From: Xanthomonas campestris pv. campestris str. ATCC 33913
GTDB lineage: Bacteria; Pseudomonadota; Gammaproteobacteria; Xanthomonadales; Xanthomonadaceae
DNA: 32,000 nucleotides
Assembly (NCBI RefSeq): GCF_000007145.1
Contig: NC_003902.1
Coordinates: 3,206,497 to 3,238,496, forward strand
Direction: 5' to 3'
Position numbers and translations under genes: made by a program. Positions 594 to 22,633 of the stretch are shown here, piece by piece. Numbering within the stretch: position 1 is the stretch's first letter; every line of letters starts with the position of its first letter. Under the pieces are notes generated by a model. The model saw only the letters and a program-made list of their open reading frames with translations, was not told the DNA's origin and ran no database searches.

Positions 594-1404
594 GCCCATG
601 AGCACGTCGACCGCGATCACCGAACAGGAATTCGGGCGCTTTCAGCGCTTCATTTTCGAAGCCGCCGGCATCAGCATTTCTTCCGGCAAGAAGGCCATGT
701 TGTGCGGACGGCTGGGCAAGCGCCTGCGCGAGCATCAGTTCGACAACTACACCCAATACCTGCAATTGCTGGAAAGCCGGCAGGATCGCGACGAGATCCA
801 GACCGCGATCGACCTGCTGACCACCAACGAAACCTATTTCTTCCGCGAGCCCAAGCACTTCGACCTGCTGCGCCGCCTGGCTGACGACCACCGTGGTGGG
901 CTGCCGCTGCGCTGCTGGAGCGCGGCCAGTTCCACCGGCGAAGAGGCCTACAGCATGGCGATGGTGCTCGACGACGCGCTGCAAGGCCGTGCGTTCGAGG
1001 TGGTCGGCACCGACATCAGCAGCCGCGTGGTGGCCAAGGCCCGCACCGGCCACTACGCCCTGCAGCGCATCGACGGCATTCCACAGGCGTATCTCAAGCG
1101 CTACTGCCTGCGCGGCCAGGGCGAGTACGCCGGCACCTTGCTGGTGGAGCGCCGCCTGCGTGACCGGGTCAAGTTCGTGCATGCCAATCTCAACGCCGCC
1201 TTGCCGATGCTGGGCAGCTTCGATGTGATCTTCCTGCGCAACGTGATGATTTATTTCAATGGCCAGACCAAGCGCGAAGTGATCCTGCGCGTGCTGGCCA
1301 ACCTCAAACCGGGCGGGCACTTCTGCATCGGCCATTCGGAAAGCCTGAGCGAGCTCGACATCGATCTCATCCAGGTGGCACCGTCGATCTTCCGTAAAGC
1401 CTGA
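577..1404 (+). CDS. cheR: CheR-type protein-glutamate O-methyltransferase
   Basis: 275-aa ORF. It has a CheR N-terminal helical region ([18 protein letters not shown]) and a SAM-binding region ([18 protein letters not shown] ... [12 protein letters not shown]). The start is uncertain: ATG 577 overlaps the EAL ORF by 17 nt, and ATG 598 is the alternative. Confidence 0.9.
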
Positions 1405-1418
1405 GCCAGGGATCCACC

Positions 1419-2528: not shown

Positions 2529-2827
2529 CGATGCATCGGCCTGAGACAGGCAGCGGTGAAAGCTGGCGGTTGCGCCAAGTGCTTCGTGCAACGTCTTAGT
2601 CGGCTCTTCGATCGCGACATCACTGTGCCGGCTTTACGGCACATCGCGTCACGCCTGCGCGTAGCCAGCGAGAGGCGCAATCAGTACCGGCAGGTCGTCC
2701 GTCAACGTACGCACGTCATTGCGATCGCCACGCGCAAGACAGTACGACGTCGTAAATGCCCAACAGGCACGCAGCAAAGTGCACGCAGTCCTGCCCCCAC
2801 TGCTACGCCAGCTGTTTCTCCCCGTAG

Positions 2828-4390
2828 TTACAACTGCGAATCCAGCGGCAACCAGCCCAACACCTTGGCCGCGCCGCGACGCCACACACTGGCGGCCGGT
2901 TCGCGCGTCCACACCGCCGGTGGCTGCGCGGCATCGTCGTGCCAGCGCAATCCGCCCTGCTCCAACGTCACCCGGTAGCTCACCGGCGCGCTCACCTTGT
3001 GGTTGTATAGCCGCTCCAGCTCCGCGGTCACGGTGCGGTCTTCGAATAGCAGGCCCATCTCGGTGTTGAGATTCATCGCCCGCGGGTCCAGGTTGAACGA
3101 ACCGATGAAACCGGCGCTGTCGTCCACCACGAAGGCCTTGGTATGCAGGCTCGCACCACTGGAACCGAACAGGCTGCCATCCGGGCGCCCCATCGGCTTG
3201 AGCTCGTGCAGGCGCACGCCTTGTTGCAGCAGCGGAATGCGGTAGTCCGCATAGCCGCTGTGCACGGCCACGACATCGTTGGCGGCCAGTGAATTGGTCA
3301 ATACGCTGACGCGTACATCGCGCTTGCGCAGGCCACCGATCCAGCGCATGCCGTCGTCGCCGGGCACGAAATAAGGTGAGATCAATTTCAGTTCGCGGCG
3401 TGCGTTGGCCATCTCGCCGATCAGGATCGGCGTCATCCAGTCCGGTTGCGGTGGCGCACCTTCGGCCTTCTCCGGCGGGTCGGCCACGATGCGCGCCTGC
3501 TGCACCCAATGCACCGGGCGATTGCCCTGCATCAAGGCATGCACGCTTGGCGATTGGCGCAGGCGCTCCACGTACGGGTGCGCGCCCACCGACGCCATCC
3601 CGGCGTCCAGGCTGCCGCGCAGTTGCTCCAGCGCCTGCGGCTTGGCGGTGACCAGCGCCGCCAGCGGCAATGCATTGGGGCTGTTCCAGTAGGCATCGAA
3701 CACCTGTTCGGACTGACGCACCGTCGGGCCGATCAAGGCCGCGTCCATGTCCATGAAGTTGGTGTCGCGCGCGGCGTCGAAATATTCGTCGCCCACATTG
3801 CGCCCACCCACCACCGCGATGCGGCCATCGGCAATCCACGCCTTGTTGTGCATGCGTCGGTTGATGCTGAACATGCGCAGCACCATTTCCACGCCGCGCA
3901 TCAGCGTGCCCTCGCGTGCACGGGTGGGGTTGAACAGGCGGATCTCGATCAGCGGATGGCTGTCCAACGCGGCCAGCACCGAGTCGCTGCCATGGATGTT
4001 CATGTCGTCCAGCAACAGGCGCACGCGCACGCCACGGTCGGCCGCACGCAGCAATTCGTTGTGCAACAGGTTGCCGGTGAAGTCGGCATGCCAGATGTAG
4101 TACTGCAGATCCAGGCTGCGGCCGGCCGCACGCGCGGTCAACGCGCGCACCGCAAACGCATCGATGTTGTCGGACAGGATCACCATGCCGGTCTTGCCGG
4201 CATGCGCCTGCTGCAACGGAGCGACGACCTGGTCGATTGGCGTTGCCTGCGCCGCCACCGGCAAGGCATGGCTGGCAGGGCCGCGCTCGCGATCGGCAAA
4301 GCGGCCGTAGCCATACAGCGACAGCACGCTGCCCAGCGCCAGCACCAGCACGCCGATGCCCGCCCACTTGAAGATCTTGCGTTTGGTCAC
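2828..4390 (-). CDS. Phospholipase D family protein with two HKD motifs and an N-terminal membrane anchor (ClsC/YmdC-like cardiolipin synthase or phospholipase)
   Basis: 520-aa ORF with a GTG start at 4390. An N-terminal hydrophobic helix (IFKWAGIGVLVLALGSVLSLYGY) is present. There are two HxKxxxxD motifs with downstream G-x-x-N: MHNKAWIADG...GGRNVGDEY and LHTKAFVVDD...GSFNLDPR. Confidence 0.85.
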   Translation of the reverse strand: MTKRKIFKWAGIGVLVLALGSVLSLYGYGRFADRERGPASHALPVAAQATPIDQVVAPLQQAHAGKTGMVILSDNIDAFAVRALTARAAGRSLDLQYYIWHADFTGNLLHNELLRAADRGVRVRLLLDDMNIHGSDSVLAALDSHPLIEIRLFNPTRAREGTLMRGVEMVLRMFSINRRMHNKAWIADGRIAVVGGRNVGDEYFDAARDTNFMDMDAALIGPTVRQSEQVFDAYWNSPNALPLAALVTAKPQALEQLRGSLDAGMASVGAHPYVERLRQSPSVHALMQGNRPVHWVQQARIVADPPEKAEGAPPQPDWMTPILIGEMANARRELKLISPYFVPGDDGMRWIGGLRKRDVRVSVLTNSLAANDVVAVHSGYADYRIPLLQQGVRLHELKPMGRPDGSLFGSSGASLHTKAFVVDDSAGFIGSFNLDPRAMNLNTEMGLLFEDRTVTAELERLYNHKVSAPVSYRVTLEQGGLRWHDDAAQPPAVWTREPAASVWRRGAAKVLGWLPLDSQL

Positions 4391-4485
4391 TGCCGGTTCC
4401 GCGTTGAAGTGCGCGGCAGTCTAGGGAACCTCTGAACAACGCATGATACGCCCAGGGTTTCCTAGACATCTCAAGGCCATGGAAA

Positions 4486-4779
4486 ATGGTCGATTCGGAG
4501 GTGTCTATGAGCAGCAAGCGATATACGGATGAGTTCAAGATCGAGGCGGTCCGGCAAGTGACTGATCGTGGGTTCAAGGTGGCAGAAGTCGCCGAGCGGC
4601 TGGGTGTCACGACGCACAGCCTGTACGCCTGGCTGCGCACGTTCGGCAAGTCTGGCGTGGTGCATCGCGCCGAGGTGGACCAGAGCGCCGAGGTTCGGCG
4701 GCTGAAGGCAGAGTTGCGTCGAGTGACCGAGGAGCGCGACATCCTAAAAAAGGCCGCCGCGTACTTTGCCAAGGGGTAA
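4486..4779 (+). CDS. IS3-family transposase OrfA (helix-turn-helix DNA-binding part)
   Basis: 97-aa ORF. YTDEFKIEAVRQV...GFKVAEVAERLGVTTHSLYAWLR is a typical IS3 OrfA HTH, followed by a leucine-zipper-like region (EVRRLKAELRRVTEERDILKKAAAYF). Confidence 0.9.
   Translation: MVDSEVSMSSKRYTDEFKIEAVRQVTDRGFKVAEVAERLGVTTHSLYAWLRTFGKSGVVHRAEVDQSAEVRRLKAELRRVTEERDILKKAAAYFAKG
4746..4752 (+). promoter_or_regulatory. Programmed -1 ribosomal frameshift heptamer A_AAA_AAG joining OrfA to OrfB
   Basis: In the orfA frame the sequence reads CTA AAA AAG. A shift to -1 gives KKGRRVLCQGVKAKYAFMQAH..., which runs without a stop into the orfB frame. The site sits in the usual position, 25-30 nt before the orfA stop. 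Confidence 0.75.
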
Positions 4780-4796
4780 AGGCAAAGTACGCCTTC

Positions 4797-5651
4797 ATGC
4801 AAGCCCACTGCGGGGAATTCAGGGTGTGTGCAATGTGCCGGGTATTGCGGGTCAACCGGTCGGGTTATTACGCCTGGTTGTGCTCGCCCAACAGTGAGCG
4901 CGCCAAGGAAGATGATCGCTTGCTTGGACTAATCAAGCACCACTGGCTGGCCAGCGGCAGTGTCTATGGGCATCGCAAGATCACCACGGATCTGCGCGAT
5001 CTGGGTGAGCGTTGTAGTCGTCATCGGGTGCATCGGCTGATGCGCACCGAGGGACTGCGTGCCCAGGTGGGCTATGGTCGCAAACCGCGCTTCCATGGAG
5101 GAATGCAGTGCAAGGCGGCGGCCAACCTGCTTGACCGACAGTTCGACGTGACGGAGCCGGACACGGCCTGGGCGAGCGATTTCACCTTCATCCGCACGCA
5201 TGAAGGCTGGATGTATTTGGCTGTTGTGATCGATCTGTTTTCCAGGCAGGTCGTCGGCTGGGCGATGCGCGATCGGGCCGACACCGAGTTGGTCGTGCAG
5301 GCGGTGTTGTCTGCGGTGTGGCGGCGCAAACCCAACGCTGGTTGCTTGGTTCATTCGGACCAAGGGTCTGTCTACACCAGCGATGACTGGCGCAGTTTCC
5401 TGGCGTCCCATGGCTTGGTGTGCAGCATGAGTCGGCGTGGCAACTGCCACGACAACGCACCCGTGGAGAGCTTCTTCGGCCTGCTCAAACGCGAGCGGAT
5501 CAGGCGGCTGACCTATCCCACCAAGGACGCCGCTCGCGCCGAGGTATTCGACTACATCGAGATGTTCTACAACCCCAACCGCCGCCACGGTTCAACTGGC
5601 GACCTGTCACCTGTAGAGTTTGAACGGCGCTACGCGCAACGAGGGTCTTGA
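4797..5651 (+). CDS. IS3-family transposase OrfB (DDE/RNase H-like catalytic domain), normally made as an OrfAB fusion
   Basis: 284-aa ORF. It contains the conserved VNRSGYYAW motif and a DDE region (WASDFTFI ... HSDQGSVYTS ... GNCHDNAPVESFFGLLKRE). The frame is open upstream as far as the frameshift site. Confidence 0.9.
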   Translation: MQAHCGEFRVCAMCRVLRVNRSGYYAWLCSPNSERAKEDDRLLGLIKHHWLASGSVYGHRKITTDLRDLGERCSRHRVHRLMRTEGLRAQVGYGRKPRFHGGMQCKAAANLLDRQFDVTEPDTAWASDFTFIRTHEGWMYLAVVIDLFSRQVVGWAMRDRADTELVVQAVLSAVWRRKPNAGCLVHSDQGSVYTSDDWRSFLASHGLVCSMSRRGNCHDNAPVESFFGLLKRERIRRLTYPTKDAARAEVFDYIEMFYNPNRRHGSTGDLSPVEFERRYAQRGS

Positions 5652-5713
5652 GTGTCTACGGAACCCTGGGCGTATCAACGCGACACTACCCGCCTGATGT
5701 TGAGGGGTGATCC

Positions 5714-6694
5714 ATGCAACTGACGTTCGGTGACGCTGAGGGCCTGGGCAAGCGCAAGCAGACGCGCCGGGAGATCTTCCTGGCCGAGATGGAGCAGGTC
5801 GTCCCGTGGCAGCAATTGCTCGGGCTGGTCGCGCCGCACTATCCCGTGTCGGGCCGGCCAGGTCGGCAGCCGTACGCACTGGCGAGGATGTTGCGGATTC
5901 ATTTGCTGCAGCAGTGGTATGCGTTGAGCGATCCGGCGATGGAAGAAGCACTGCACGAGATCCCGACCTTGCGGCGGTTTGCCCAGCTCGGTGGCTTGGA
6001 CAACGTTCCGGACGAGACCACGATTCTCAACTTTCGCCGCCTGCTGGAGACCCATGGCCTTGCCGCGCGGATGCTGGAAGCTGTCAACGCGCATCTGGCG
6101 CGCAAGGGCCAGAGCCTGCGGTCGGGCACGATCGTCGATGCGACGCTGATCGCGGCGCCCAGTTCGACCAAGAACGCCGACCATGCGCGCGACCCCGAGA
6201 TGCATCAGACCAAGAAGGGCAATCAGTGGTATTTCGGGATGAAGGCGCACATCGGCGTGGATGAGTTTTCCGGGTTGGTGCACCACGTCCATTGCACGGC
6301 CGCCAACGTCGCCGACGTCACGGTGACGCACACGTTGCTGCATGGCAAAGAAGACAGCGTGTTTGGCGACAGCGGCTACACCGGTGCGGATAAGCGCGAA
6401 GAACTGCAGGACTGCGAGGCTGCATTTTTCATTGCTGCCAAGCGTTCGGTGCTTCAAGCCATCGGCAACAAGCGGGAGCGTGCTCGGGAACAGCGTTGGG
6501 AACACTTCAAGGCCAGCGTGCGCGCGAAGGTGGAGCATCCGTTCCGGGTGATCAAGCGCCAGTTCGGTTACACCAAGGTCCGCTATCGCGGCCTGGCGAA
6601 GAACACCGCGCAGGTGCTGACGCTGTTTGCGCTGTCAAACCTGTGGATGAAGCGAAAGCAGTTATTGCCTGCTATGGGGAGCGTGCGCCTGTAA
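5714..6694 (+). CDS. IS5-family DDE transposase
   Basis: 326-aa ORF with typical IS5-group motifs: the N-terminal region REIFLAEMEQVVPW, then IVDATLI, GMKAHIGVD, GDSGYTG and FRVIKRQFGYTKVRYRGL. Confidence 0.9.
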   Translation: MQLTFGDAEGLGKRKQTRREIFLAEMEQVVPWQQLLGLVAPHYPVSGRPGRQPYALARMLRIHLLQQWYALSDPAMEEALHEIPTLRRFAQLGGLDNVPDETTILNFRRLLETHGLAARMLEAVNAHLARKGQSLRSGTIVDATLIAAPSSTKNADHARDPEMHQTKKGNQWYFGMKAHIGVDEFSGLVHHVHCTAANVADVTVTHTLLHGKEDSVFGDSGYTGADKREELQDCEAAFFIAAKRSVLQAIGNKRERAREQRWEHFKASVRAKVEHPFRVIKRQFGYTKVRYRGLAKNTAQVLTLFALSNLWMKRKQLLPAMGSVRL

Positions 6695-6891
6695 CGCAGG
6701 CAACACCCTGCAAACGCGCCGGAAACGGCAAAAAAATCGAGGATCTGAGCGCCGTCAGCCTAGCCGATGTAGTTGGGCTCATCCTCCGACGCCGTTGATC
6801 AGACCATCCCTAGAGGCTCTGCGAGCAGGCTGGTGTGCAGACGCAGCGCATCGCAGCGGGCTCATCCTTGCGCGCATGCCGCGCGCAACGC

Positions 6892-6917
6892 GTGCAGGCG
6901 ACCGTCGCCGCCTGCAC
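6892..6917 (-). terminator. Candidate terminator hairpin downstream of the M13 peptidase gene
   Basis: 9-bp perfect GC-rich stem GTGCAGGCG/CGCCTGCAC with an 8-nt loop. It begins 16 nt past the stop codon on the minus strand. No U-tract follows, so the call is weak. Confidence 0.35.
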
Positions 6918-6932
6918 GCTGGTCCATCACGC

Positions 6933-9032
6933 TTACCAGATCGCCACGCGGTCCTTGTCGCCGCGCACCATCGCATCGCCCGGCTTGCACTGGAACGCCT
7001 GTGCGAACGCCGGCATGTTGGACGGCGCGCCGTTGGCGCGGAAGTTGGCCGGCGCATGCGGATCGGTGTTGAGGCGCACGCGCAGCTCGCCATCGGTGAA
7101 GTTGCGGCGCCACACCGTGGCCCAGTTCATGAAGAAGCGCTTGTCCTGGCTATGGCCGTCGATCTCCTTGTTGGCGGCCGGCTGTTCCTGCAACGCCATC
7201 TGCAGCGCGTCGTAGGCCACGGTGAGGCCGCCCAGGTCGCCGATGTTTTCGCCCAGGGTCAGCTTGCCTTTGACGTGCACGCCGGGAATCGCCTCGTAGC
7301 CATCGAACTGCGCCACCAGCTGATCGGTGCGCTGGGTGAACAGCTTGCGGTCGGCGTCGGTCCACCACGTGTCGAAGTTGCCCTTGGCATCGAACTGGCT
7401 GCCGGAGTCGTCGTAGCCATGCATCATCTCGTGCCCGATCACCGCACCGATGCCGCCGTAATTGAGCGCCGGGTCGGCCTTGGGATCGAAGAACGGCGGC
7501 TGCAGAATCGCCGCCGGGAACACGATCTCGTTGCGGGTGGCGTTGTAGTACGCGTTGACCGTCTGCGGCGTCATATGCCACTCGCGCTTGTCCACCGGCT
7601 TGCCGATCTTGTCGAGCATGTAGCGGTAATTGAACGCCTGCGCGGCCTGCATATTGGCCAGGAACCCGTCGCCCCGCGTTTCCAGCCCGCTCCAATCACG
7701 CCACTGGTCCGGATAGCCGATCTTGGGCGTGAAGCTGGCCCACTTTTCCAGTGCACGCTGCTTGGTCTCCGCGCTCATCCAGTCCAGCTTCTCCAGCCGC
7801 ACCTTCAGCGCGTTGGAGAGGTTCTGCACCAGCTGCTGCATCTGCGCTTTTGACTCGGCCGGGAATGCCGATTGCACGTAGAGCTGGCCCAGTGCCTCGC
7901 CCATGGCCTCGTTGACCGCGTTCAAGGTGCGCTTCCAGCGCGGCAGCATGTCCTGCTGCCCGCGCAACGTCTTGGCATAGAAATCGAAGTTGGCCTGCTC
8001 GAACGGCTTGGCCAGGTACGGCGCTGCCTCATCGATGCTGTGGAAGCGCAGATATGCCTTCCAGGTATCCACCGGCGTGTTGACGAGCATCTCGTCCAGC
8101 GCGCGGAAATACTCCGGCTGGCTCAGCGAGAAGGTGCCGGCCGGCACCTTCAGTGCACTGAAGAATGCCTGCCAATCGAAGTGCGGCGTGATCGCATTGG
8201 CGCCCGCCACATCGACCGGGTTGTAGCGCTTGGCCGGGTCACGCAGCTCGATGCGCGAGAGCGAGGCGTTGGCCAGCTGCGTCTCGAACGCCATCACCGC
8301 CTTGGCCTGTTCGGCCGCCTGTGCTGCCGGAATGCCGGACAGCTCCAGCACGCGGGCGATATAAGCCACGTACTGTTCGCGGATCTTTGCCTGGGCCGGA
8401 TCGGTGTAATAGCCCTTCTCCGGCAGGCCCAGACCGCCCTGCCCGGCATACGCAATCATCTGCTCGGAATTCTTGTAGTCGGCATTGGCGCCGAACGAGA
8501 ACAAAAAGCCCTGGCCCTTGGCATAGCTGTCGCGCAACCAGGCGGCAATCGCTGGCGCATCGCTAAGCGCATCAATCGCTTTTAGCTGCGGCTGCAGCGG
8601 GGTGATGCCGGCCTTGTCGATGGCCGCCTCGTCCGAGCCGGTCCGCCACAGGTCGGCGATCTTGGCATCCACCGAACCTGCGGACAGATTACCGCGCGCC
8701 AGTTGTTCCACCAGCGCGTGCTGGATGGTCAACGAGCGCTCGGCCAGCACTTCGAAACTGCCCCAGCTGGTGCGGTCGGACGGCACCGGGTTGGCCTTGA
8801 GCCACTTGGCGTTGACGAACCCGTTGAGGTCCTGGCATGCGGCAATGGCCGGATCCAGATCGCCGCTGCCGAAGGCCACGATCGGCGCATCCAGCTTGGA
8901 CACATCCACGCGCGTCGGCGCTGCAGATGCGGCGGCGGCCGGCTTGCTGGTGTCGTCGGAGGCGCCGCACGCGGACAGCGTCACGGCGATGGCCACCGCC
9001 AGGGACAGCGGGGCAAACTTGCTGAGGATCAT
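6933..9032 (-). CDS. M13-family zinc metallopeptidase (neprilysin/endothelin-converting-enzyme/PepO-like), predicted lipoprotein
   Basis: Contains the zinc motif HEMMHGYDD (HExxH), GENIGDLGG (ExxxD) and the substrate motif VNAYY. I chose ATG 9032 as the start because GGAG lies 6 nt upstream and it gives the signal peptide MILSKFAPLSLAVAIAVTLSAC with a canonical lipobox. The longer TTG start at 9122 was rejected. Confidence 0.9.
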   Translation of the reverse strand: MILSKFAPLSLAVAIAVTLSACGASDDTSKPAAAASAAPTRVDVSKLDAPIVAFGSGDLDPAIAACQDLNGFVNAKWLKANPVPSDRTSWGSFEVLAERSLTIQHALVEQLARGNLSAGSVDAKIADLWRTGSDEAAIDKAGITPLQPQLKAIDALSDAPAIAAWLRDSYAKGQGFLFSFGANADYKNSEQMIAYAGQGGLGLPEKGYYTDPAQAKIREQYVAYIARVLELSGIPAAQAAEQAKAVMAFETQLANASLSRIELRDPAKRYNPVDVAGANAITPHFDWQAFFSALKVPAGTFSLSQPEYFRALDEMLVNTPVDTWKAYLRFHSIDEAAPYLAKPFEQANFDFYAKTLRGQQDMLPRWKRTLNAVNEAMGEALGQLYVQSAFPAESKAQMQQLVQNLSNALKVRLEKLDWMSAETKQRALEKWASFTPKIGYPDQWRDWSGLETRGDGFLANMQAAQAFNYRYMLDKIGKPVDKREWHMTPQTVNAYYNATRNEIVFPAAILQPPFFDPKADPALNYGGIGAVIGHEMMHGYDDSGSQFDAKGNFDTWWTDADRKLFTQRTDQLVAQFDGYEAIPGVHVKGKLTLGENIGDLGGLTVAYDALQMALQEQPAANKEIDGHSQDKRFFMNWATVWRRNFTDGELRVRLNTDPHAPANFRANGAPSNMPAFAQAFQCKPGDAMVRGDKDRVAIW

Positions 9033-9197
9033 TGAATTCTCCAGGACAGGGGCCGCAGCGTGCGCGCGGCCGAAAAGAGTAGGTAATCGGCGCACTGCGC
9101 TGATCCCCCAAAAGTCACACAACAGGCGAACGCCCTAACGTCCGCCACCGCGCGCATCCAGCCGCTGCGGCATCGCACTCCAACGCGCCACTGCGCG

Positions 9198-13193: not shown

Positions 13194-13447
13194 ACAACGC
13201 CCGCAGATGGCAAGACCGGCGGCGGCCGGTCAGCCACATCGCTTCGCACTACGACTTGGAGCAGCCATCAAAACGACTGCGCAGCCGCCAGGCGGGCGCG
13301 GCCGGTGCTCGGAATCGGCATGTACCTACGTACACTCCGGTTCCTCCGCGCCGTCCGCACCCACCTGACGACTGCTCGCTACGTTTCCGCTCTTAATGCG
13401 CTAATGCAGCTGCGCGCCGGCATCCGCCAGCGCGCGCTGAATGCGCA

Positions 13448-13882
13448 TTAGCGCGTCGAACCGCCGGCAGCATCCACCAGCGCGTGCGGCTGCAGTTCGG
13501 TGGCAATGCGCACCTCGCCGGTGAGCAGGCGATGGATCGGGCACTTCTCCGCCACCTCCAGCAGACGTGCACGCTGGTCATCGTCCAGTGCGCCGTCCAG
13601 CACGATCGCGCGCGTGATCGATGTGCCCGCGGCGCCGCGCTGGGTGTAATGCAGGTGCACGTGCACCGCGGCCAATGGCCATTGCTTGCGCGCGGCCACC
13701 ATCGACACGGTGATGGCGGTGCAGGCACCCAATGCGCCCAGCACCTGCGCCTCTGGATCCGGCCCCGCATCCTGGCCACCGTTGGCCGGCTGGGTGTCGC
13801 CGATCCAGCGGTGCTGGCCATCGTGGACGGTGACCGTATAGGGCACCGCGCCGGTGACGACACTGACGGCGCGATCACTCAT
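13448..13882 (-). CDS. OsmC/Ohr-family peroxiredoxin-like protein
   Basis: 144 aa from ATG 13882, with GGGAGAA 7 nt upstream. OsmC-like features are present: the two conserved Cys contexts LGALGACTAITVSM and EKCPIHRLL. It lies 33 nt downstream of the pirin stop on the same strand, so the two are probably an operon. Confidence 0.8.
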   Translation of the reverse strand: MSDRAVSVVTGAVPYTVTVHDGQHRWIGDTQPANGGQDAGPDPEAQVLGALGACTAITVSMVAARKQWPLAAVHVHLHYTQRGAAGTSITRAIVLDGALDDDQRARLLEVAEKCPIHRLLTGEVRIATELQPHALVDAAGGSTR

Positions 13883-13915
13883 GTGCGCTTCTCCCACGCG
13901 GCAACCCGCCCCGGT

Positions 13916-14776
13916 TCAAAACCGCCCCTCCTGGAAATCGACGAACGCCTGCATCAATTCCTGCTTGGTGTTCATCACGAACGGGCCATGCCGCATCACC
14001 GGCTCGTTGATCGGCCGGCCGGCGACCAGGATCAAGCGCGCGCCGGCAGCACCGGCCTGCAGCCGCAGCCGCTCGCCACCGCCCAGCACCGCCAGCTCCT
14101 GCGCCGGCAACGGGCGTGCGCCCTCGCCCTCGCCGACCGTGGCCGCGCCTTCGAAGGCGTACGCGAACGCGTTGTGGCCGGCGGGCAGCAGATAGTCCCA
14201 GGACGTGTCCGGCGCCAGTGCGATATCCAGGTACACCGGCTCGGTGGCCGGCTGCACGATCGGCCCGTGCACATCGCCCACCGCGCCGGCAATCACCTTG
14301 ACCGTGACGCCCGCAGCCGGATACGCGACCGGGATCTTGTCCGGCGCGTATTCCTGATACTTGGGGTCGCTCATCTTGTCGCGCGCAGGCAGATTCACCC
14401 ACAGCTGGAAACCACGCATGCGCCCGGATTCCTGCTCGGGCATTTCCGAATGGATCAGGCCGCGCCCGGCGGTCATCCACTGCACGCTGCCTGGGGTCAG
14501 CAGGCCTTCGTTGCCGTGGTTGTCCTTGTGCCGCATGCGTCCGTCGAGCATGTACGTGACGGTCTCGAAGCCGCGGTGCGGATGGCTCGGAAAGCCGGCG
14601 ATGTAGTCTTCGGCCTGTTCGGTGCCGAACTCATCCAGCATCAGGAACGGGTCCAGTGCCGGCAGCTGCGGTGTGCCGATCACGCGGGTCAGCTTGACCC
14701 CGGCACCGTCGGAGGTGGGCATGCCGCGAATGGTCCGCAGCACGTGTGCCGCCGTGGAGGTGGTGGTGTCGCTCAT
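13916..14776 (-). CDS. Pirin family (bicupin) protein, YhhW/quercetinase-like
   Basis: 286 aa from ATG 14776, with GGGAG 7 nt upstream. Motifs present: GFPSHPHRGFETVTYMLDGRMRHKDNHGN, VQWMTAGRGLIHSEMP, and RGFQLWVNLP. The C-terminus is HGPFVMNTKQELMQAFVDFQEGRF. Confidence 0.85.
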   Translation of the reverse strand: MSDTTTSTAAHVLRTIRGMPTSDGAGVKLTRVIGTPQLPALDPFLMLDEFGTEQAEDYIAGFPSHPHRGFETVTYMLDGRMRHKDNHGNEGLLTPGSVQWMTAGRGLIHSEMPEQESGRMRGFQLWVNLPARDKMSDPKYQEYAPDKIPVAYPAAGVTVKVIAGAVGDVHGPIVQPATEPVYLDIALAPDTSWDYLLPAGHNAFAYAFEGAATVGEGEGARPLPAQELAVLGGGERLRLQAGAAGARLILVAGRPINEPVMRHGPFVMNTKQELMQAFVDFQEGRF

Positions 14777-15008
14777 CGAACGCTCCCTGTGCGCAAGTGG
14801 ATGCCTTGCATGATGGAGGCCGCTGGCATGGCGCCCAATCGCGACACGTGCAACCGACCGTTCCAAAACGCCGCGGCGCGCAGGCGCAATGCCGCACTGC
14901 AATGCCAGACACCATACGACCAAAGGCTTACCCGATCCCCGGGCGGCACCATTGACCGCGGACAGCCGGCGGGAGGACCCTTAGCGGGATCGTTCCTGAG
15001 GGGCATGC

Positions 15009-17081
15009 ATGAAAGGTATCTCGAAGCTGGCCTGGGGCGCGCTGGCGCTGCTGGCCGCGTTCTGCTTGGGCACCGTGGCGCTGCGGCGCGGCGAACACAT
15101 CAACGCGTTGTGGATCGTGGTGGCGGCGGTGTCGATCTATCTGATCGCCTACCGCTTCTATGGCCTGTTCATCGCCGACAAGGTGATGCAGCTCGACCCC
15201 ACCCGCGCCACCCCGGCGGTGACCAATAACGACGGTCTGGACTACGTGCCCACCAACAAGCACGTGCTGTTCGGGCACCACTTCGCCGCGATCGCCGGCG
15301 CCGGGCCGTTGGTCGGCCCGGTGCTCGCCGCGCAGATGGGCTACCTGCCCGGCCTGCTGTGGCTGGTGGTTGGCGTGGTGCTGGCCGGCGCGGTGCAGGA
15401 CTTCATGGTGCTGTTCCTGTCCACGCGCCGCAACGGCCGCTCGCTCGGCGACCTGGTGCGCGAAGAGATGGGCCAGGTGCCCGGCACCATCGCGCTGTTC
15501 GGCGCCTTCCTGATCATGATCATCATCCTGGCGGTGCTGGCGATGGTGGTGGTCAAGGCCTTGGCCGAGAGCCCGTGGGGCATGTTCACGGTGATCGCGA
15601 CGATGCCCATCGCGATCATGATGGGCGTGTACATGCGCTACATCCGCCCCGGCAAGATCGGCGAGATTTCGGTGGTGGGATTGATCCTGCTACTGGGTGC
15701 GATCTGGCTAGGTGGCCAGGTGGCCGCCGACCCGACCTGGGGCCCTGCCTTCACCTTCACCGCCAAGCAGATCACCTGGATGTTGATCGGCTACGGCTTC
15801 ATCGCCTCGGTGCTGCCGGTATGGCTGCTGCTGGCACCGCGCGACTATCTGTCCACCTTCCTCAAGATCGGCACCATCCTGGGCCTGGCGATCGGCATCC
15901 TGATCGTGATGCCCGACCTCAAGATGCCGGCGCTCACCCAGTTCGCTGCCAGCGGCGATGGCCCGGTGTGGAAGGGCGGCATCTTCCCGTTCCTGTTCAT
16001 CACCATCGCCTGCGGTGCGGTGTCCGGCTTCCATGCGTTGATCGCCTCCGGCACCACGCCCAAGCTGCTCGCCAACGAAGCGCACATGCGCTACATCGGC
16101 TACGGCGGCATGTTGATGGAATCGTTCGTGGCGATCATGGCGCTGGTGGCCGCGTCGATCATCGAACCCGGCATCTATTTCGCCATGAATAGCCCGGCCT
16201 CGTTGGTCGGCAGCGATACCGTCGCAGTGGCTGCCAAGGTCAGCGAATGGGGCTTTGCAATCACCCCGGAAGTGCTGGAAGCCACCGCGCGCGACATCGG
16301 CGAGCACAGCATCCTGGCGCGCGCCGGTGGTGCACCCACGCTGGCGGTAGGCATCGCGCAGATCCTGCACCACGTGCTGCCGGGCGAGAACACGATGGCG
16401 TTCTGGTACCACTTCGCGATCCTGTTCGAAGCGTTGTTCATCCTCACCGCAGTGGACGCGGGCACGCGTGCCGGCCGCTTCATGCTGCAGGACCTGCTGG
16501 GCAACTTCATCCCGGCACTGAAGAAGACCGAATCGTGGACCGCCAACATCATCGCCACCGCCGGTTGCGTGGCGCTGTGGGGCTACCTGCTCTACACCGG
16601 CGTGATCGATCCGTTCGGCGGTATCCAGACGCTGTGGCCGTTGTTCGGCATCTCCAACCAGATGCTGGCCGGCATCGCGTTGATGCTGGGCACAGTGGTG
16701 CTGTTCAAGATGAAGCGTGACCGCTACGCCTGGGTCACCATCGTGCCGGCGCTGTGGCTGCTGTTGTGCACCACCTACGCCGGGCTGATCAAGATCTTCG
16801 ACAGCAACCCGGCGCAGGGTTTCCTGGCGCAGGCGCACAAGTTCCAGGCCGCCATCGCCAGCAACACCATCACCGCACCGGCCAAGACCGTGCCGCAGAT
16901 GCAGCAGATCGTCACCAACGCCTACGTCAACACCGGGCTGACGGTGCTGTTCCTGTTCGTGGTGGGCTCGATCCTGATCTACGCAGTCAAAACGATCGTG
17001 GTCGCCCGCCGCAGCCCGCAGCGCAGCGATCGCGAAACCCCGTACGTGGCACTGCAGCCACACCAGATGGCGGATCTGTAA
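15009..17081 (+). CDS. cstA: Carbon starvation protein A family transporter (peptide/pyruvate uptake)
   Basis: 690-aa polytopic membrane protein. CstA N-terminal signature: [22 protein letters not shown]...TPA...[42 protein letters not shown] lies 6 nt upstream of the ATG. Confidence 0.95.
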
Positions 17082-17430: not shown

Positions 17431-17640
17431 GAGCGGTTGATCTGCGGCTTGGGTGGAGGCCCCCTTGCCCGCTCACCGTCGCGGGACACGCTGCAAGGTA
17501 GAGCGGCTGATCTGCGGCTTGGCTGCACAGCCTGCTCGCTCACCGTCGCGGGACACGTCGCAAGCTGGACAGGCTGATCTGTGGCTTGGCTGCAGGGCCC
17601 TTGCCCGCTCACCATCGCGGGACACGCTGCAAGTACGTCC
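17431..17640. repeat. Three head-to-tail copies (about 67-73 bp period) of a REP-like half-unit
   Basis: The copies start near 17431, 17501 and 17568. Each reads G(C/T)TGATCTG(C/T)GGCTTGG(C/G)TG...CCCGCTCACC(G/A)TCGCGGGACACG(C/T)(T/C)GCAAG (the middle copy has CTCGCTCACC). I found the alignment by eye. Confidence 0.8.
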
Positions 17641-18019: not shown

Positions 18020-18697
18020 TCAACCAGCGCGCGTTTGCGCGAGCCGCTCGAACAATGCGTGCAAATCGCGCATATCGTCGAACACCTCCAGCACGCCGAT
18101 CCGTCGCAGGGTGTCGCCGTGCCCTTGCGGAATATGGCTGGCACCGGTAAAGCCCAGCACCTGCATGCCGGCCGCCAGCGCGGCGGTCGCACCGGTGGGG
18201 CTGTCTTCGATGACCAGGCAACGCTCCGGTGCTACACCGGCCGTGCGCGCGGCCAGCAGGTAAACATCCGGTGCGGGCTTGGGCCGCTCCACCATGTCGG
18301 CGCTGAAGATCCGCCCTGCCGCACGCGCCGTGAGCCCGGCCCGCTCCACCGATGCAATCACGTTGTGGCGGCGGCTATTGGAGGCCACCGCCAGCGGCAG
18401 CGGGATCTGCTCCAGCGCCTGTCGCACGCCCGCAATCGGCTGCACCTCGGCGGCGATCAAGGCTTCGCTGCGCGCCTGGATCTGCGCCAGCAAGGTTTCC
18501 GGCAACTGCAGCGCAAAGTGTTCTTCCACCCGCCGCAATACCTCGCGCGTGGTCTGCCCGAACGTGGTTTCCAGCAGATGTTCCAACGGCTCGGCCGGCA
18601 CGAACGCTGCCAGCGCCTCACGCATTACCCGGTCGGCCAGGATTTCGCTGTCGACAAGAACCCCATCGCAGTCACTGATCAGTAGCTCGTACGCCAT
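18020..18697 (-). CDS. HAD-superfamily hydrolase (subfamily IA, phosphatase/beta-phosphoglucomutase-like)
   Basis: HAD motif I is YELLISDCDGVLVDSE (DxDG). Motif II is AVASNS. Motifs III and IV are RPKPAPDVY and LVIEDSPTGATAALAAGM. The start is uncertain: ATG 18697 gives MAYELLISDCDG, and in-frame ATGs at 18706 and 18724 are alternatives. Confidence 0.8.
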   Translation of the reverse strand: MAYELLISDCDGVLVDSEILADRVMREALAAFVPAEPLEHLLETTFGQTTREVLRRVEEHFALQLPETLLAQIQARSEALIAAEVQPIAGVRQALEQIPLPLAVASNSRRHNVIASVERAGLTARAAGRIFSADMVERPKPAPDVYLLAARTAGVAPERCLVIEDSPTGATAALAAGMQVLGFTGASHIPQGHGDTLRRIGVLEVFDDMRDLHALFERLAQTRAG

Positions 18698-18958
18698 TGC
18701 ACCCATCTGCTTGCAAAGCGCCATTATGCCGACCCGGTCGTGACCGTCGGCTGTGGCGCAGCGCCCGCACAGGGGACGAAGACGCCCGCGCGCCCGTCGG
18801 CAAGGTCAGTCGCCAAGCAGACCCAGCCAGACGCCCGGTTACGCGCCTATGTCACGAAATCTTACCGCTTGCGATTTTTACAGCTGGTAGGATCGGCCCC
18901 GCTGTGGCGGGACGTGCCGCAGCGTCATCAGGAATGCGATCAGGAGAAGGAGATTTCG

Positions 18959-19723
18959 ATGCAGACGCGATTCCCCACCCTGCTCGTTCTTGCGACCTCG
19001 TTCTTCGCGGTCTCATGCACCGCCTCGCCCGGTGCCAAGGAGCAAACCACCATGTCAGCTACGCTGCAGGACCATGCCGTCGCTTTCCGCGACCCCGGTC
19101 TGACCGACATCGCCAACGCCATCGCGCACGGCGACATCGCACGGATCAAAACGCTCGCCCCCACCGTCGATCTGGCCGCACATGGCGATCAGAACGTGAC
19201 CTTGCTGGAATGGGCGATCTGGAACGAACAACCCCGCGCCCTGGACGCGCTGCTCGATGCAGGCGCGGACCCGGCGTTGCCGGGCATGGACCAGGAAACG
19301 GTCGTGCACATGGCCGCCATGGCGCAGGACCCGCAATACTTGAAGATTCTGCTGCAGCACAAGGCACCGATCGACGTGGTCAGCGCGCGTGCCGGCTGGA
19401 CGCCGCTGTTCCGCGCGGTGCAGAGCAAGCGCGATGCGCAGATCGGCCTGTTGCTCGACGCAGGCGCCGACGTGCAGCGCGTCGACCATACCGGTAACAG
19501 CCTGCTGCATCTGGCCGCGCAGAGCGGCGCCTCCAGCCCGACAGTGTTGCAATTGCTCAAGGCCGGTGTGAACCCCACGGTGCGCAATGCACAGCAGAAG
19601 ACCTTCCAGGCGTATTTCTTCACCACGCCGGACCGTCTGCTCAATGCCACCGGACAACAGGTCAGATCGGATGTGCGCGCATGGTTGAGCGCTCACAACA
19701 TTCCCGTGGAAAGCAGCCGCTAA
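18959..19723 (+). CDS. Ankyrin-repeat lipoprotein, candidate periplasmic immunity protein for the downstream lipase effector
   Basis: 254 aa from ATG 18959, preceded by the strong SD GGAGAAGGAG. The signal peptide MQTRFPTLLVLATSFFAVSC has a lipobox-like AVSC. There are 4-5 ankyrin-like repeats, for example TLLEWAIWNEQPRALDALLDAGADP, GWTPLFRAVQSKRDAQIGLLLDAGADV, and GNSLLHLAAQSGASSPTVLQLLKAGVNP. Confidence 0.8.
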   Translation: MQTRFPTLLVLATSFFAVSCTASPGAKEQTTMSATLQDHAVAFRDPGLTDIANAIAHGDIARIKTLAPTVDLAAHGDQNVTLLEWAIWNEQPRALDALLDAGADPALPGMDQETVVHMAAMAQDPQYLKILLQHKAPIDVVSARAGWTPLFRAVQSKRDAQIGLLLDAGADVQRVDHTGNSLLHLAAQSGASSPTVLQLLKAGVNPTVRNAQQKTFQAYFFTTPDRLLNATGQQVRSDVRAWLSAHNIPVESSR

Positions 19724-19759
19724 GCGCGCTTTCCGCACGACGCACGCAAGGAACCGCGC

Positions 19760-20956
19760 ATGTCCCCGTCAGAATCCACATCCTCCACCGCCGCATCCAC
19801 TCCGTTCGCAGAGTCGATGCGCGGACAACAACCGCAGCCGCAGGACCGGCAATTTCCGGAGCTGCTGCAAGATCTCTATGCCACTGCCAATCAACGCCGC
19901 GAAGGCGGTGCCGAAACCTTTGCGCCGCTGGCCAACGGCTGGTCGCGCATGGACGACAGTGCGCTGCAGCAGGCCGGCATCGATCCGGCACTGCTGCACG
20001 ACGCAAAAAGCGGCTTCGATGCCGCGTTCTATCGCAACGATCAAGGCCAGGTGGTACTCGGTTTTTGCGGAACCGACGAAGGCAAGGACTGGAAGCACAA
20101 CATCGGCCAGGGCCTGGGCTTCGACGATGCGCAATATGCATCGGCAATCCAGCTCGGCAGCCAGGCCAAACACGCCTTCGGCGACCAGGTGGTGATCTCC
20201 GGCCATTCGTTGGGCGGTGGTCTGGCATCGGCATCGGCCATGGTCAACGACATTCCCGCGGTGACGTACAACGCGGCCGGCGTCAACGACCGTACCCTCG
20301 AACGCGAGGGCCTGGATGCATCGGCAGCCAAGCAGTACGCCAGCGAGGAGTTGATTCGCGGCTACCACGTCAAGAACGAAATCCTCACCCATCTGCAGGA
20401 AGACAGCATTCCGCTGAAGTGGACGATGCCCAATGCGGCTGGCCACCAGATCGAATTGCCGGAGCCGGACCCGCTGTCGTTCGGGCAGCGGCTGGTACCC
20501 GGCATGATGCTCAAGCACCGCCTGGACCTGCACGGGGTGGACTCGGTGATCAAGGCGCAGGACATGCAATCGCCCGACCAGGCACGCGGCGCGTCGCTGC
20601 AGCCGGGCAGCCAGCTGTTCAACGATGCCGTGGTGCAACTGGATGGCCAGCGCGAGCGGCTGGGGCTGCGCGACGACACCGCGTTTCTCAACACTGCCGC
20701 CAGCGTGGCTGCGCGGGCAGGCAACGACGGCCTGCAGCGGATCGATCATCTGGTGCCCAACCGCGATGGCGATAGCCTGATCGCGGTGCAGGGCCGCATG
20801 GACGACCCCACCCATCTGCGCAGCCATGTGCAGACGGCGGCCGCGGCCAACGAACCGGCGCAGACCAATGTCGGCCAGCTGCAGCAGCACAACCAGCAGC
20901 ACGCGCATCCGCAGGCCCAGCAGCAGGACGAGCAGCGCCGGGTGATCCAGCAATAA
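19760..20956 (+). CDS. Lipase (class 3/DUF2974-like alpha/beta hydrolase) with a C-terminal XVIPCD-like domain, candidate antibacterial T4SS effector (X-Tfe type)
   Basis: 398 aa with AAGGAA 7 nt upstream of the ATG and no signal peptide. The lipase core is GFDAAFYRNDQGQVVLGFCGTDEGKDW...VVISGHSLGGGLASA, with GxSxG and Ser150. The C-terminus carries GLQRIDHLV (aa 324-332) and IAVQGRMDDPTHLRS (aa 341-355), followed by the Gln-rich tail QLQQHNQQHAHPQAQQQDEQRRVIQQ. Confidence 0.85.
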   Translation: MSPSESTSSTAASTPFAESMRGQQPQPQDRQFPELLQDLYATANQRREGGAETFAPLANGWSRMDDSALQQAGIDPALLHDAKSGFDAAFYRNDQGQVVLGFCGTDEGKDWKHNIGQGLGFDDAQYASAIQLGSQAKHAFGDQVVISGHSLGGGLASASAMVNDIPAVTYNAAGVNDRTLEREGLDASAAKQYASEELIRGYHVKNEILTHLQEDSIPLKWTMPNAAGHQIELPEPDPLSFGQRLVPGMMLKHRLDLHGVDSVIKAQDMQSPDQARGASLQPGSQLFNDAVVQLDGQRERLGLRDDTAFLNTAASVAARAGNDGLQRIDHLVPNRDGDSLIAVQGRMDDPTHLRSHVQTAAAANEPAQTNVGQLQQHNQQHAHPQAQQQDEQRRVIQQ

Positions 20957-21117: not shown

Positions 21118-22368
21118 TTAACCTGCCCCGGCCATCGCCCGCAAGGTAATGCCGACCAGATACGCCAGGTAGGTGCCGGTGGCATAGCCCATGGTGCCCA
21201 GCAGCACACCCACGGGCGCCAACGCGGGATGGAAGGCCGCAGCGACCACCGGCGCGGAAGCCGGCCCGCCGATGTTGGATTGCGAGCCGATCGCGAAATA
21301 GAAGAACGGTACCCGCAGCAGGCGGCCCAGGCCCAACAACAGCACGATGTGCACGGCAATCCAGCTCAGCCCGAGCAGGAACAGCCACGGGCGATCGAGC
21401 AAGGCCAGCAGGTCCATTTGCATGCCGATGCAGGCGATCAGGAAATACAGCAGCAAGGTCCCGATCTTCGAGGCGCCCGCGCCTTCCAAAGTGCGTGCGC
21501 GGGTGAAGCTGAGTAGCAGGCCCAGGCTGGTCGCCAGCACCACGACCCACACGAACGGCGTGTCCAGACTGAACTGGCGCGCCCAGCTCAGGTTCACCTT
21601 GCACCAGCCGGCCAAGGGGTTGGCGAGCGCATGCGCCAGGCCCACCCCGCCGAACGCCACGGCCACAATTACCATCAGGTCCGACAGGCTGGGAATGCGC
21701 GCGTGCTCGGCCTGGAAGCGCGCCATGCGCTCCTGCAAGGCATCCAGTGCGCGGGTATCGGCGCCGCTGCGCGCATCGATGCTGCGGGCGCGCCCGGCCA
21801 GGAAGATCAGCACCGCCATCCACACATAACCCACGCCAACATCGACCACGGCAAATTGCCCGAACGTGCTGGCATTCACCGCGAATACCTCGCGCATCGC
21901 CAGCATGTTGGCGCCACCGCCGATCCAGCTGCCGGCCAACGCCGCCATGCCAGCCCAGGTATCGCCGGCCACGGTGGCCGGGTGCAGCCAGCGCATCACC
22001 CAGAACGCGACCACCGCGCCCAGCATGATGCTCAGCGATGCGCCCAGATACATCGCCACCAGCTTGGGGCCCAGGCGCAGGATGGCGCGCAGGTCGATGC
22101 TCAGGGTCAGCAGGATCAGGGCGGCCGGCAGCAGCACGTCGCGGGCGATCGGGTTGTACAGCCACGTGTTGGCGCCATCGATCAGCCCTACCGTGTTGTA
22201 GATGCCCGGCAGCAGATAGCAGAGCAACAAGGCCGGCACCACTGCGTAGAACCGCTGCCAGGGGCCGCGTTCGCGGGCGGATGTCCAGAACACGGCGCCG
22301 AGGGTGGCGGCGATCAGACCGAACACGACAATGTCGTTCTGGATCAGTGCAACAGGGGGTGGGGTCAC
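21118..22368 (-). CDS. DUF819-type polytopic integral membrane protein
   Basis: About 12 hydrophobic segments are present. The conserved-looking C-terminal region is FAIGSQSNIGGPASAPVVAAAFHPALAPVGVLLGTMGYATGTYLAY. I prefer GTG 22368 as the start because it gives VTPPPVALIQNDIVVFGL just before the first helix. The 46 codons from ATG 22506 are Arg/Pro-rich and not membrane-protein-like. Confidence 0.65.
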   Translation of the reverse strand: MTPPPVALIQNDIVVFGLIAATLGAVFWTSARERGPWQRFYAVVPALLLCYLLPGIYNTVGLIDGANTWLYNPIARDVLLPAALILLTLSIDLRAILRLGPKLVAMYLGASLSIMLGAVVAFWVMRWLHPATVAGDTWAGMAALAGSWIGGGANMLAMREVFAVNASTFGQFAVVDVGVGYVWMAVLIFLAGRARSIDARSGADTRALDALQERMARFQAEHARIPSLSDLMVIVAVAFGGVGLAHALANPLAGWCKVNLSWARQFSLDTPFVWVVVLATSLGLLLSFTRARTLEGAGASKIGTLLLYFLIACIGMQMDLLALLDRPWLFLLGLSWIAVHIVLLLGLGRLLRVPFFYFAIGSQSNIGGPASAPVVAAAFHPALAPVGVLLGTMGYATGTYLAYLVGITLRAMAGAG

Positions 22369-22633
22369 GAGCGGTGGAGATCCTGGCAGATGGCCGCGCA
22401 GTGGCGGATCGTCCAAGCGTGGCCGATCACCCGAATCTAGCCGACCGGCGTGCCTGCGCAAAGCGCGGGGATGGATCGGGTTTTCCTGTGCGCACGCCTC
22501 GGACATGTGCGCACCGGTCTGTCAGGCAACCGGGCACCTGCGGGGACTTCTCCACCGACGGCTGATCTCAGGACAAGTTGGTTGCGCTTGCCGCTGGAAG
22601 ACGCCGCCAGCTCCTGTCCGCGAGGTCGCAAGC

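Follow-up and report, generated by a model that had tools for sequence, protein, structure and literature searches.

A predicted phospholipase effector gene and its ankyrin-repeat immunity gene in Xanthomonas campestris pv. campestris, and their likeness to the Tle6-Tli module

Results

Gene content of the locus

The window analysed in this work is a stretch of 32,000 nucleotides from Xanthomonas campestris pv. campestris (Xcc) str. ATCC 33913 (NCBI RefSeq assembly GCF_000007145.1, contig NC_003902.1, positions 3,206,497 to 3,238,496 of the forward strand). The locus under study lies at 18959-20956 of this window. It consists of two genes that encode an ankyrin-repeat lipoprotein and a lipase carrying the Xanthomonas VirD4-interacting protein conserved domain (XVIPCD). 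We consider it very likely that the locus is the Xcc copy of XAC2885/XAC2884, a phospholipase effector (X-Tfe) and ankyrin immunity protein (X-Tfi) pair of the Xanthomonadales type IV secretion system (X-T4SS). The features of the locus are listed below, where SD denotes a Shine-Dalgarno sequence, aa denotes amino acids and + denotes the forward strand.

18947-18952, +: SD sequence AAGGAG of the full-length ankyrin lipoprotein, read from the sequence, 6 nt 5' of ATG 18959
18959-19723, +: ankyrin-repeat immunity lipoprotein gene (predicted X-Tfi), 254 aa, ATG 18959 to TAA 19721-19723; probable XAC2884 counterpart and homologue of Enterobacter cloacae Tli
18959-19018, +: predicted lipoprotein signal peptide (sequence MQTRFPTLLVLATSFFAVSC), lipobox AVSC, Cys20 codon 19016-19018
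19037-19054, +: conserved internal start with AAGGAG 19037-19042 (Lys-Glu codons), a 9-nt spacer and ATG 19052-19054 (Met32); predicted to give a signal-less 223-aa isoform
19085-19693, +: ankyrin solenoid, six helix-pair repeats, residues ~43-245, from the AlphaFold2 (AF2) model
19748-19753, +: SD-like sequence AAGGAA of the lipase gene, read from the sequence, 6 nt 5' of the lipase ATG
19760-20956, +: phospholipase effector gene (predicted X-Tfe), 398 aa, signal-less, ATG 19760 to TAA 20956; probable XAC2885 counterpart
19817-20569, +: Tle6-type alpha/beta-hydrolase lipase domain, residues ~20-270, by homology to Tle (7ubz_B, 9cys_A)
20207-20209, 20378-20380 and 20531-20533, +: predicted catalytic triad Ser150, Glu207 and His258, from the alignment to Tle
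20600-20887, +: XVIPCD core, residues 281-376, predicted VirD4-binding secretion signal (Pfam PF20410)
20876-20953, +: Gln-rich C-terminal tail ending ...QQQDEQRRVIQQ, with Arg and hydrophobic residues near its end (sequence)

The first-pass annotation of this DNA had described a two-gene unit with a 36-nt gap and an SD sequence before each gene, and all of these are present (gap at 19724-19759). The scans for sigma-70 promoters and intrinsic terminators between 18600 and 21200 gave nothing above shuffled expectation, so the operon structure rests on the 36-nt gap. The translations of both open reading frames (ORFs) are identical to deposited Xcc proteins. The lipase corresponds to AAM41994.1/AAY48462.1 ('Phospholipase A1' / 'XVIPCD domain-containing protein') and the ankyrin protein to CAP50793.1 ('ankyrin repeat domain-containing protein'). 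When the genes are compared with those of four other Xanthomonas species, the ratio of nonsynonymous to synonymous substitution rates (dN/dS) lies at 0.09-0.28 for the two together and at 0.09-0.24 for the lipase alone. Because of the exact deposited matches and these ratios, both ORFs are real genes under purifying selection and are not chance ORFs.

The ankyrin protein begins with a basic n-region and a hydrophobic core, followed by the lipobox-like AVSC with Cys20. The lipoprotein call was made from the sequence with a PROSITE-style rule, and it agrees with the lipoprotein signal proposed in the first pass. The signal and the Cys are kept in most of the aligned Xanthomonadales homologues. 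The matches of the protein to Pfam Ank_2, Ank, Ank_4 and Ank_3 each exceed the family cut-off. The AF2 model (predicted local distance difference test, pLDDT, 86.9) exhibits six helix-pair repeats over residues ~46-245, with helices at 46-56/60-69, 82-88/92-100, 115-121/126-133, 149-155/159-167, 182-189/194-201 and 216-220/230-245. Residues 1-38 are modelled with low confidence or as disordered. The description of the protein as almost entirely ankyrin repeats is thus right for the mature protein. Because of the ambiguity of its start, the ankyrin gene has been called at 269, 254 and 223 aa, and the public annotations use GTG 18914, ATG 18959 and ATG 19052, respectively. The 269-aa call adds 15 residues before the signal peptide without an obvious SD sequence. 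Some public entries carry the wrong name 'ABC transporter permease' for this gene.

The 398-aa lipase has no signal peptide and its GHSLGG motif holds Ser150, as had been noted from the sequence. Its earlier classification as class-3-lipase-like needs a small correction. The match to Pfam Lipase_3 reaches 15.4 bits against a cut-off of 22 and covers the nucleophile elbow only, hence membership of that family was rejected. The match to Pfam Mbeg1-like (formerly DUF2974) is a marginal pass (21.7 bits, cut-off 21.1). A profile built from 32 sequences of the lipase family reaches the fungal class-3 lipases weakly (1DT3, E=2e-5), so the relation to class-3 lipases appears to be remote. Ser150 is invariant and His258 is nearly so across the 32 diverse relatives. 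Glu207 is invariant in the 18 sequences of the XVIPCD clade, and the wider set has Glu or Asp at this position in most members.

The XVIPCD of the lipase

Residues 281-376 of the lipase match Pfam PF20410 (X-Tfes_XVIPCD) with E=4.7e-19 and 69.3 bits, where the gathering score is 24.9. The same region matches the solved XVIPCD of XAC2609 (7MU9; phmmer, E=2.1e-12) and that of Stenotrophomonas maltophilia TfcB (7R6S; phmmer, E=4.2e-11). The presence of an XVIPCD, which had been proposed from motifs, is therefore borne out by the significant profile match and the match to 7MU9. The motifs themselves, GLQRIDHLV and IAVQGRMDDPTHLRS, are present in the lipase together with the Gln-rich tail. The tail reads QLQQHNQQHAHPQAQQQDEQRRVIQQ and has basic and hydrophobic residues close to its end. 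A Gln-rich tail with terminal basic and hydrophobic residues is a feature of XVIPCDs, and the extreme C-terminus is needed for the translocation of XAC2609 and XAC3634 (PMC8740702).

Five residues of XAC2609 (D363, F375, V377, D383 and P384) matter for VirD4 binding and killing (Oka et al., PMC8740702). These residues correspond to D329, I341, V343, D349 and P350 of the lipase in the ungapped alignment with 7MU9. Four of the five positions are identical, and the fifth (Ile341), where Phe is conservatively replaced with Ile, is also Ile in the close X. citri homologues.

The C-terminal ~100 residues of PDB 9p3h_A (444 aa, 'conserved hypothetical protein') match the XVIPCD profile as well (E=3e-11), and by its sequence this chain is apparently another solved X-Tfe.

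Probable identity with the published X. citri pair

The lipase shares a 90% cluster with X. citri proteins of 395 aa, to which its identity is 91%. The names 'XVIPCD domain-containing protein', 'DUF2974 domain-containing protein' and 'phospholipase' are already in use for this protein in hundreds of Xanthomonas entries. XAC2885 of X. citri 306 is described as an X-Tfe of 395 aa with an XVIPCD at 271-395 and a predicted phospholipase, and XAC2884 is treated as its X-Tfi, where both genes were deleted together. We matched the Xcc lipase to XAC2885 on organism, length and domain coordinates, without an accession number. XAC2885 itself bound VirD4 in the yeast two-hybrid assay, in which its fragments were recovered as prey of the VirD4 all-alpha domain (PMC8740702). 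The X-Tfi genes sit upstream of the X-Tfe genes in the same orientation (PMC7777525; also the 2019 review, PMC6536674), which is the order found at 18959-20956.

The domain and hidden Markov model (HMM) scans of the 32-kb window detected neither a structural gene of the T4SS nor a second XVIPCD. The former had already been stated in the first pass, where the locus was called an orphan. The locus lies apart from the secretion machinery, but this is not unusual since most X-Tfe/X-Tfi pairs lie away from virB; usually only some of the pairs are near the virB locus (2019 review and a later review). Xcc carries a chromosomal X-T4SS, and its locus is intact in strain B100 (PMC6536674).

Likeness to the Tle-Tli complex

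The best match of the lipase among solved structures is a type VI secretion system (T6SS) effector, Tle of E. cloacae (7ubz_B), which is matched over the catalytic core with E=9.6e-16 by the single sequence. The 32-sequence profile matches the same chain with E=2.4e-43 over chain residues 39-304. In that profile alignment S150, E207 and H258 of the lipase align with Ser341, Glu393 and His448 of Tle (numbering of the Tle paper). The AF2 model of the lipase matches 9cys_A in Foldseek (E=1.3e-8), where the whole-chain template modelling score (TM) is low (0.30/0.41) for a two-domain model with a poor 208-280 segment.

The family profile of the ankyrin protein matches the Tli chain 7ubz_A with E=2.9e-24 in one collinear stretch (50-245 against 14-219); generic ankyrin proteins outscore Tli in bits, so the ankyrin sequence evidence alone is not specific. 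The top two PDB matches of its AF2 model in Foldseek are both Tli chains, 9cys_I and 7ubz_A (TM 0.66/0.72, 224 columns, root-mean-square deviation 3.7). By profile and model comparison, both proteins of the locus map onto one solved toxin-immunity complex (9CYS/7UBZ).

Tli of E. cloacae has six ankyrin repeats, and its solenoid cups Tle with an interface of ~3,900 Å² and sequesters the amphipathic lid helix (PMC11470151). The first-pass statement that neutralisation of a lipase by an ankyrin scaffold is uncharacterised is out of date, as it has been solved in this homologous pair. The authors propose the name Tle6 and report that ankyrin immunity genes invariably accompany those of such lipases (PMC11470151). 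E. cloacae Tle has phospholipase A1/A2 activity. No T6SS-related domain was found in the lipase or in the 32-kb window by the domain scans. The Xcc lipase is thus a Tle6 homologue that probably acts in a similar way but does not belong to the T6SS effectors.

Tle is activated by a methylglyoxal crosslink (MODIC) between Arg180 and Lys461 that forms only in the complex with Tli. In the profile alignment, HGIGQAIDCIEQQKDE of Tle pairs with HGVDSVIKAQDMQSPD of the Xcc lipase, where Lys461 corresponds to Ser271 and Glu458 to Asp268. No Lys occupies the Lys461 column in any XVIPCD-clade sequence aligned in the 32-sequence profile. Arg180 of Tle falls outside the alignable region, and bridging by a Serratia homologue gave no longer Tle alignment than the single-sequence search over the catalytic core. 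The MODIC/advanced glycation end-product (AGE) crosslink was rejected for the Xcc lipase on the pairing of Lys461 with Ser271 in this profile, which extends to chain residue 304. Judging from these alignments, the activation chemistry of Tle6 probably does not carry over to the Xcc lipase.

Candidate internal start at Met32 of the ankyrin gene

Met32 lies twelve codons past Cys20, and the AAGGAG sits in the motif 'GAKEQxxM'. This motif is kept in nearly all of the 117 aligned homologues though it lies in what would be expected to be a free linker. The median predicted anti-SD pairing energy is -7.7 kcal/mol at the Met32 sites and -1.5 kcal/mol at the remaining in-frame Met codons of these genes; energies of -6 kcal/mol or lower are found at 81% and 2% of them, respectively. 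Family-wide, 67% of the Met codons just 5' of the first ankyrin helix reach -5 kcal/mol or lower, compared with 7% of the controls. In the XVIPCD clade, 16 of 17 genes use GAG as the Glu codon at the Met32 site, compared with 45% elsewhere in those genes. The GGAG core survives where the Lys is replaced with Gln or Arg. These counts come from related sequences and so are not independent of one another.

It has been noted that X-Tfi genes of X. citri possibly have alternative starts (Sgro et al. 2019), and it has been shown that cytosolic Tli, presumably from downstream starts, is needed for deploying active Tle (Jensen et al.). A cytosolic ankyrin isoform from Met32 is plausible because of the conserved SD-ATG and these two reports. 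A broader proposal is that the gene has two products, a periplasmic lipoprotein and a cytosolic Met32 protein, that the dual start is ancestral to the whole Tle6/Tli module whatever the delivery machine, and that the cytosolic isoform pre-binds the lipase. We hold this proposal only tentatively and lean slightly against it. If true, the cytosolic isoform would hold the lipase inactive or make it competent, and coupling by VirD4 would need to detach a tightly held ankyrin solenoid from the effector before translocation through the T4SS.

Distribution of the module among delivery systems

The lipase-domain, XVIPCD and ankyrin HMMs were run over all ORFs of 80 loci in a scan that took one genome per species. 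An ankyrin ORF is adjacent and on the same strand in 73 of the 88 related lipase ORFs. The ankyrin gene is upstream in all 19 XVIPCD-positive lipase ORFs, which are all from Xanthomonadales/Lysobacterales, whereas it is downstream only in 45 of the 69 XVIPCD-negative ones. The XVIPCD-negative lipases include fusions to VgrG (L022 and L080), to PAAR (L074) and to a WXG100-like region whose score falls a little short of the Pfam cut-off (L055, from an actinobacterium). Further XVIPCD-negative members, in Serratia, Yersinia and Photorhabdus, are short and Slp-like. The papers of the Hayes laboratory list VgrG, PAAR, DUF4150, Rhs and CdiA fusions of Tle6-type lipases. Neither Xanthomonas nor the T4SS nor an XVIPCD branch is mentioned in their two papers on Tle-Tli (a preprint version of 2023 and a paper of 2024). 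Our literature searches identified no paper that links Tle6 to the X-T4SS, and the X-T4SS papers found do not mention Tle6.

Several loci have expanded cassettes. The locus L022 of Terasakiispira (1292-7224) has a VgrG-lipase gene followed by three tandem ankyrin genes. Expanded cassettes were also identified in L014, L015, L016, L025, L052, L064 and L078, and several Lysobacteraceae loci have two lipase-ankyrin pairs in tandem. This suggests diversification of toxin and immunity alleles.

An orphan ankyrin homologue that is 62% identical to the Xcc protein was identified in Methylobacterium sp. NMS14P (CP087106.1; L081, 5001-5672). It starts at the Met32 equivalent with its own GAGGAG, and the upstream frame has no signal peptide. 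No lipase gene is nearby, and its neighbours include RuvC, ResIII and solute-binding-protein genes. This homologue could be a stand-alone immunity gene acquired outside Xanthomonadales.

Flanking genes and other features of the window

The cassette is flanked by a HAD-family hydrolase gene (18020-18724, reverse strand) and a DUF819 membrane-protein gene (21118-22506, reverse strand). X. melonis, X. euroxanthea, X. bonasiae, X. translucens and Xanthomonas sp. NCPPB 1128 share the order HAD-ankyrin-lipase-DUF819. The DUF819 neighbour is kept in several Pseudoxanthomonas and Luteimonas loci and in one Stenotrophomonas locus. Because of the synteny across Xanthomonas and the DUF819 neighbour in further genera, the cassette is an old and stable chromosomal locus and not an island, and its surroundings are of a conserved housekeeping kind.

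M13 domains are known in some X-Tfes, and the window has an M13 peptidase gene at 6933-9122 (reverse strand) with Peptidase_M13_N and Peptidase_M13. This gene was rejected as a second X-Tfe, as its M13 domain reaches the C-terminus and the XVIPCD HMM gives no match. The Xanthomonas small RNA sX9 (RF02228) was matched in Rfam at 13320-13391 (forward strand; 69.9 bits, gathering score 44), upstream of the ORF at 13484-15229, and this agrees with the Xanthomonas origin of the DNA. A unit of 67 bp is repeated 2.9 times with 81% matches at 17438-17633, in the non-coding region between cstA (15009-17081) and the HAD hydrolase gene. This repeat appears as 'ARSPSRDT' peptides in spurious ORFs and possibly represents an intergenic repeat element of Xanthomonas. 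The HTH_21 and rve integrase-core domains of the ORF at 4797-5651 (forward strand) point to a transposase of the IS3 family; this stretch is slightly lower in guanine-plus-cytosine content (~0.61-0.62).

Discussion

Proposed mechanism

The findings in this work support a toxin-immunity interpretation of the locus, which the first-pass annotation had proposed. The XVIPCD, the upstream ankyrin gene, the homology to Tle and Tli, and the likeness to XAC2885 all argue for it at the sequence level. Both genes would be co-transcribed with the immunity gene first, as the 36-nt gap and the gene-order rule of the family suggest. The 398-aa effector would stay cytoplasmic because it lacks a signal peptide. 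Its XVIPCD would bind the all-alpha domain of VirD4, and the X-T4SS would inject the lipase into a neighbouring Gram-negative cell; domain homology, the conserved contact residues and the two-hybrid result of the X. citri homologue point to this step. The Ser150-Glu207-His258 hydrolase would then cleave the membrane phospholipids of the target, as predicted from the homology to Tle. The periplasmic six-repeat ankyrin lipoprotein would protect the producer, where its concave face would clamp the lipase and sequester the amphipathic lid helix. The clamped lipase would not be able to engage membranes, if the 9CYS structure and the homology to Tli are taken as a guide. The internal SD-ATG at Met32 probably yields a cytosolic isoform too, which would guard the inner leaflet before export.

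Several points weigh against this interpretation. The activity, binding and secretion of the Xcc proteins are what we infer from the comparisons above. The virB locus is reported to be fragmented in Xcc 8004 and ATCC 33913, where virB5 and virB6 lie at other genomic sites (PMC6536674). One of the VirD4-contact positions is changed, from Phe375 of XAC2609 to Ile341 of the lipase, and some lipase-type candidates of S. maltophilia were negative in the VirD4 two-hybrid assay. The claims made at the level of the lid draw on homology at ~25% identity, and the AF2 model of the lipase is of moderate quality (pLDDT 71; poor prediction of residues 208-280). Because of this pLDDT and the low whole-chain TM, the model was not used for placing the lid helix.

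The pair has already been published and annotated, and the value of its identification here is a correct X. campestris annotation and not new biology. The modest additions made in this work are the link between a T4SS effector and Tle6 and the family-wide internal start. The link to Tle6-Tli gives a testable model in which the X-Tfi blocks the lipase by lid sequestration. It also places the same toxin-antidote module behind the delivery domains of T4SS and T6SS, and probably of the type VII secretion system (T7SS), where a change in the position of the delivery domain goes with a switch in gene order. The internal start might account for the protection, or priming, of a cytoplasmic lipase by an immunity protein of the periplasm.

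Alternative explanations

The ankyrin protein might be an obligate activator or chaperone in addition to an immunity protein. The Met32 isoform would then bind the newly made lipase in the cytosol and make it competent, and no active toxin would be delivered without it. This is what would be expected from the homology of both proteins to Tle-Tli, where cytosolic Tli from alternative starts is needed for deploying active Tle, and it fits the strong conservation of the internal SD-ATG here and family-wide as well as the alternative start codons of X. citri X-Tfi genes (Sgro et al. 2019). However, the Tle6 chemistry needs Lys461, which is Ser271 here and Lys in no aligned XVIPCD-clade sequence. 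It also seems difficult for a domain that is crosslinked from N to C, and thus topologically circular, to cross a T4SS, where passage presumably requires unfolding (discussed in PMC8740702), and protection against self-poisoning (cis-intoxication) explains a cytosolic isoform equally well. We consider such an activator role unlikely, though it deserves more weight than the two explanations that follow.

The reportedly fragmented virB locus of Xcc 8004 and ATCC 33913 (PMC6536674) raises the question of whether the lipase is no longer exported in these strains, such that the cassette would survive as a selfish module of toxin and antidote or for its retained immunity value. The orphan Methylobacterium homologue, with no lipase nearby, indicates that an immunity gene can persist alone. 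But both genes are intact, including the XVIPCD and the tail, and they are under purifying selection (dN/dS ~0.1-0.25) in a cassette that is syntenic across Xanthomonas and neighbouring genera. The B100 locus is intact, and the fragmentation in the other strains means that virB5 and virB6 are elsewhere in the genome and not lost (PMC6536674). Such a decoupled remnant is improbable in our view. Even less credit, close to none, is given to a lipase that is aimed at a eukaryote (plant or amoeba) with the ankyrin protein as a eukaryote-like effector and not an immunity protein. Ankyrin repeats are typical of eukaryote-directed effectors, and NCBIfam returned weak sub-threshold matches to Legionella Ank effectors; those matches fall far short of the cut-offs (45 bits, where 600 would be required) and are explained by generic repeats. 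The reading from these Legionella families was rejected on scores that are 10-30 times below the cut-offs. Moreover, the ankyrin protein has a lipoprotein signal and not a secretion signal, the lipase carries an interbacterial XVIPCD, T4SS deletion leaves virulence unchanged in X. citri and Xcc (PMC6536674), and the homologous Tle-Tli pair is antibacterial. The X-T4SS effector and immunity pair thus stays the preferred interpretation of the locus.

Comparison with known systems

The Xcc pair is closest to X-Tfe(XAC2885)/X-Tfi(XAC2884) of X. citri. Both pairs share the lipase-then-XVIPCD architecture and the upstream ankyrin gene. The Xcc lipase differs from XAC2885 in being three residues longer, in ~9% of its residues and in the species it comes from. 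By their descriptions, two further X-T4SS lipase effectors resemble that of the Xcc pair, the X. citri protein X-Tfe(XAC0574), paired with XAC0573, and the S. maltophilia protein TfcA (smlt2990); each is an XVIPCD-tagged predicted lipase with an immunity gene upstream. XAC0574 has been listed as a phospholipase X-Tfe distinct from XAC2885, and TfcA is needed for the T4SS killing of Escherichia coli, Klebsiella pneumoniae and Pseudomonas aeruginosa.

The Xcc pair and Tle-Tli of E. cloacae ATCC 13047 both exhibit a homologous lipase with its triad, a six-repeat ankyrin lipoprotein, adjacent genes and downstream alternative starts. The Xcc proteins are only ~24-26% identical to those of Tle-Tli. 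The Xcc lipase has a C-terminal XVIPCD for the T4SS, whereas Tle has an N-terminal domain for the T6SS, and the gene order is inverted with the Xcc immunity gene upstream. Slp of Serratia marcescens and the Tle6-type lipases fused to VgrG, PAAR, Rhs or CdiA have the same lipase domain and an adjacent ankyrin immunity gene. These lipases are associated with T6SS, the type V secretion system (T5SS) or probably T7SS and their immunity gene is downstream, whereas the Xcc lipase is predicted to use the T4SS and its immunity gene is upstream.

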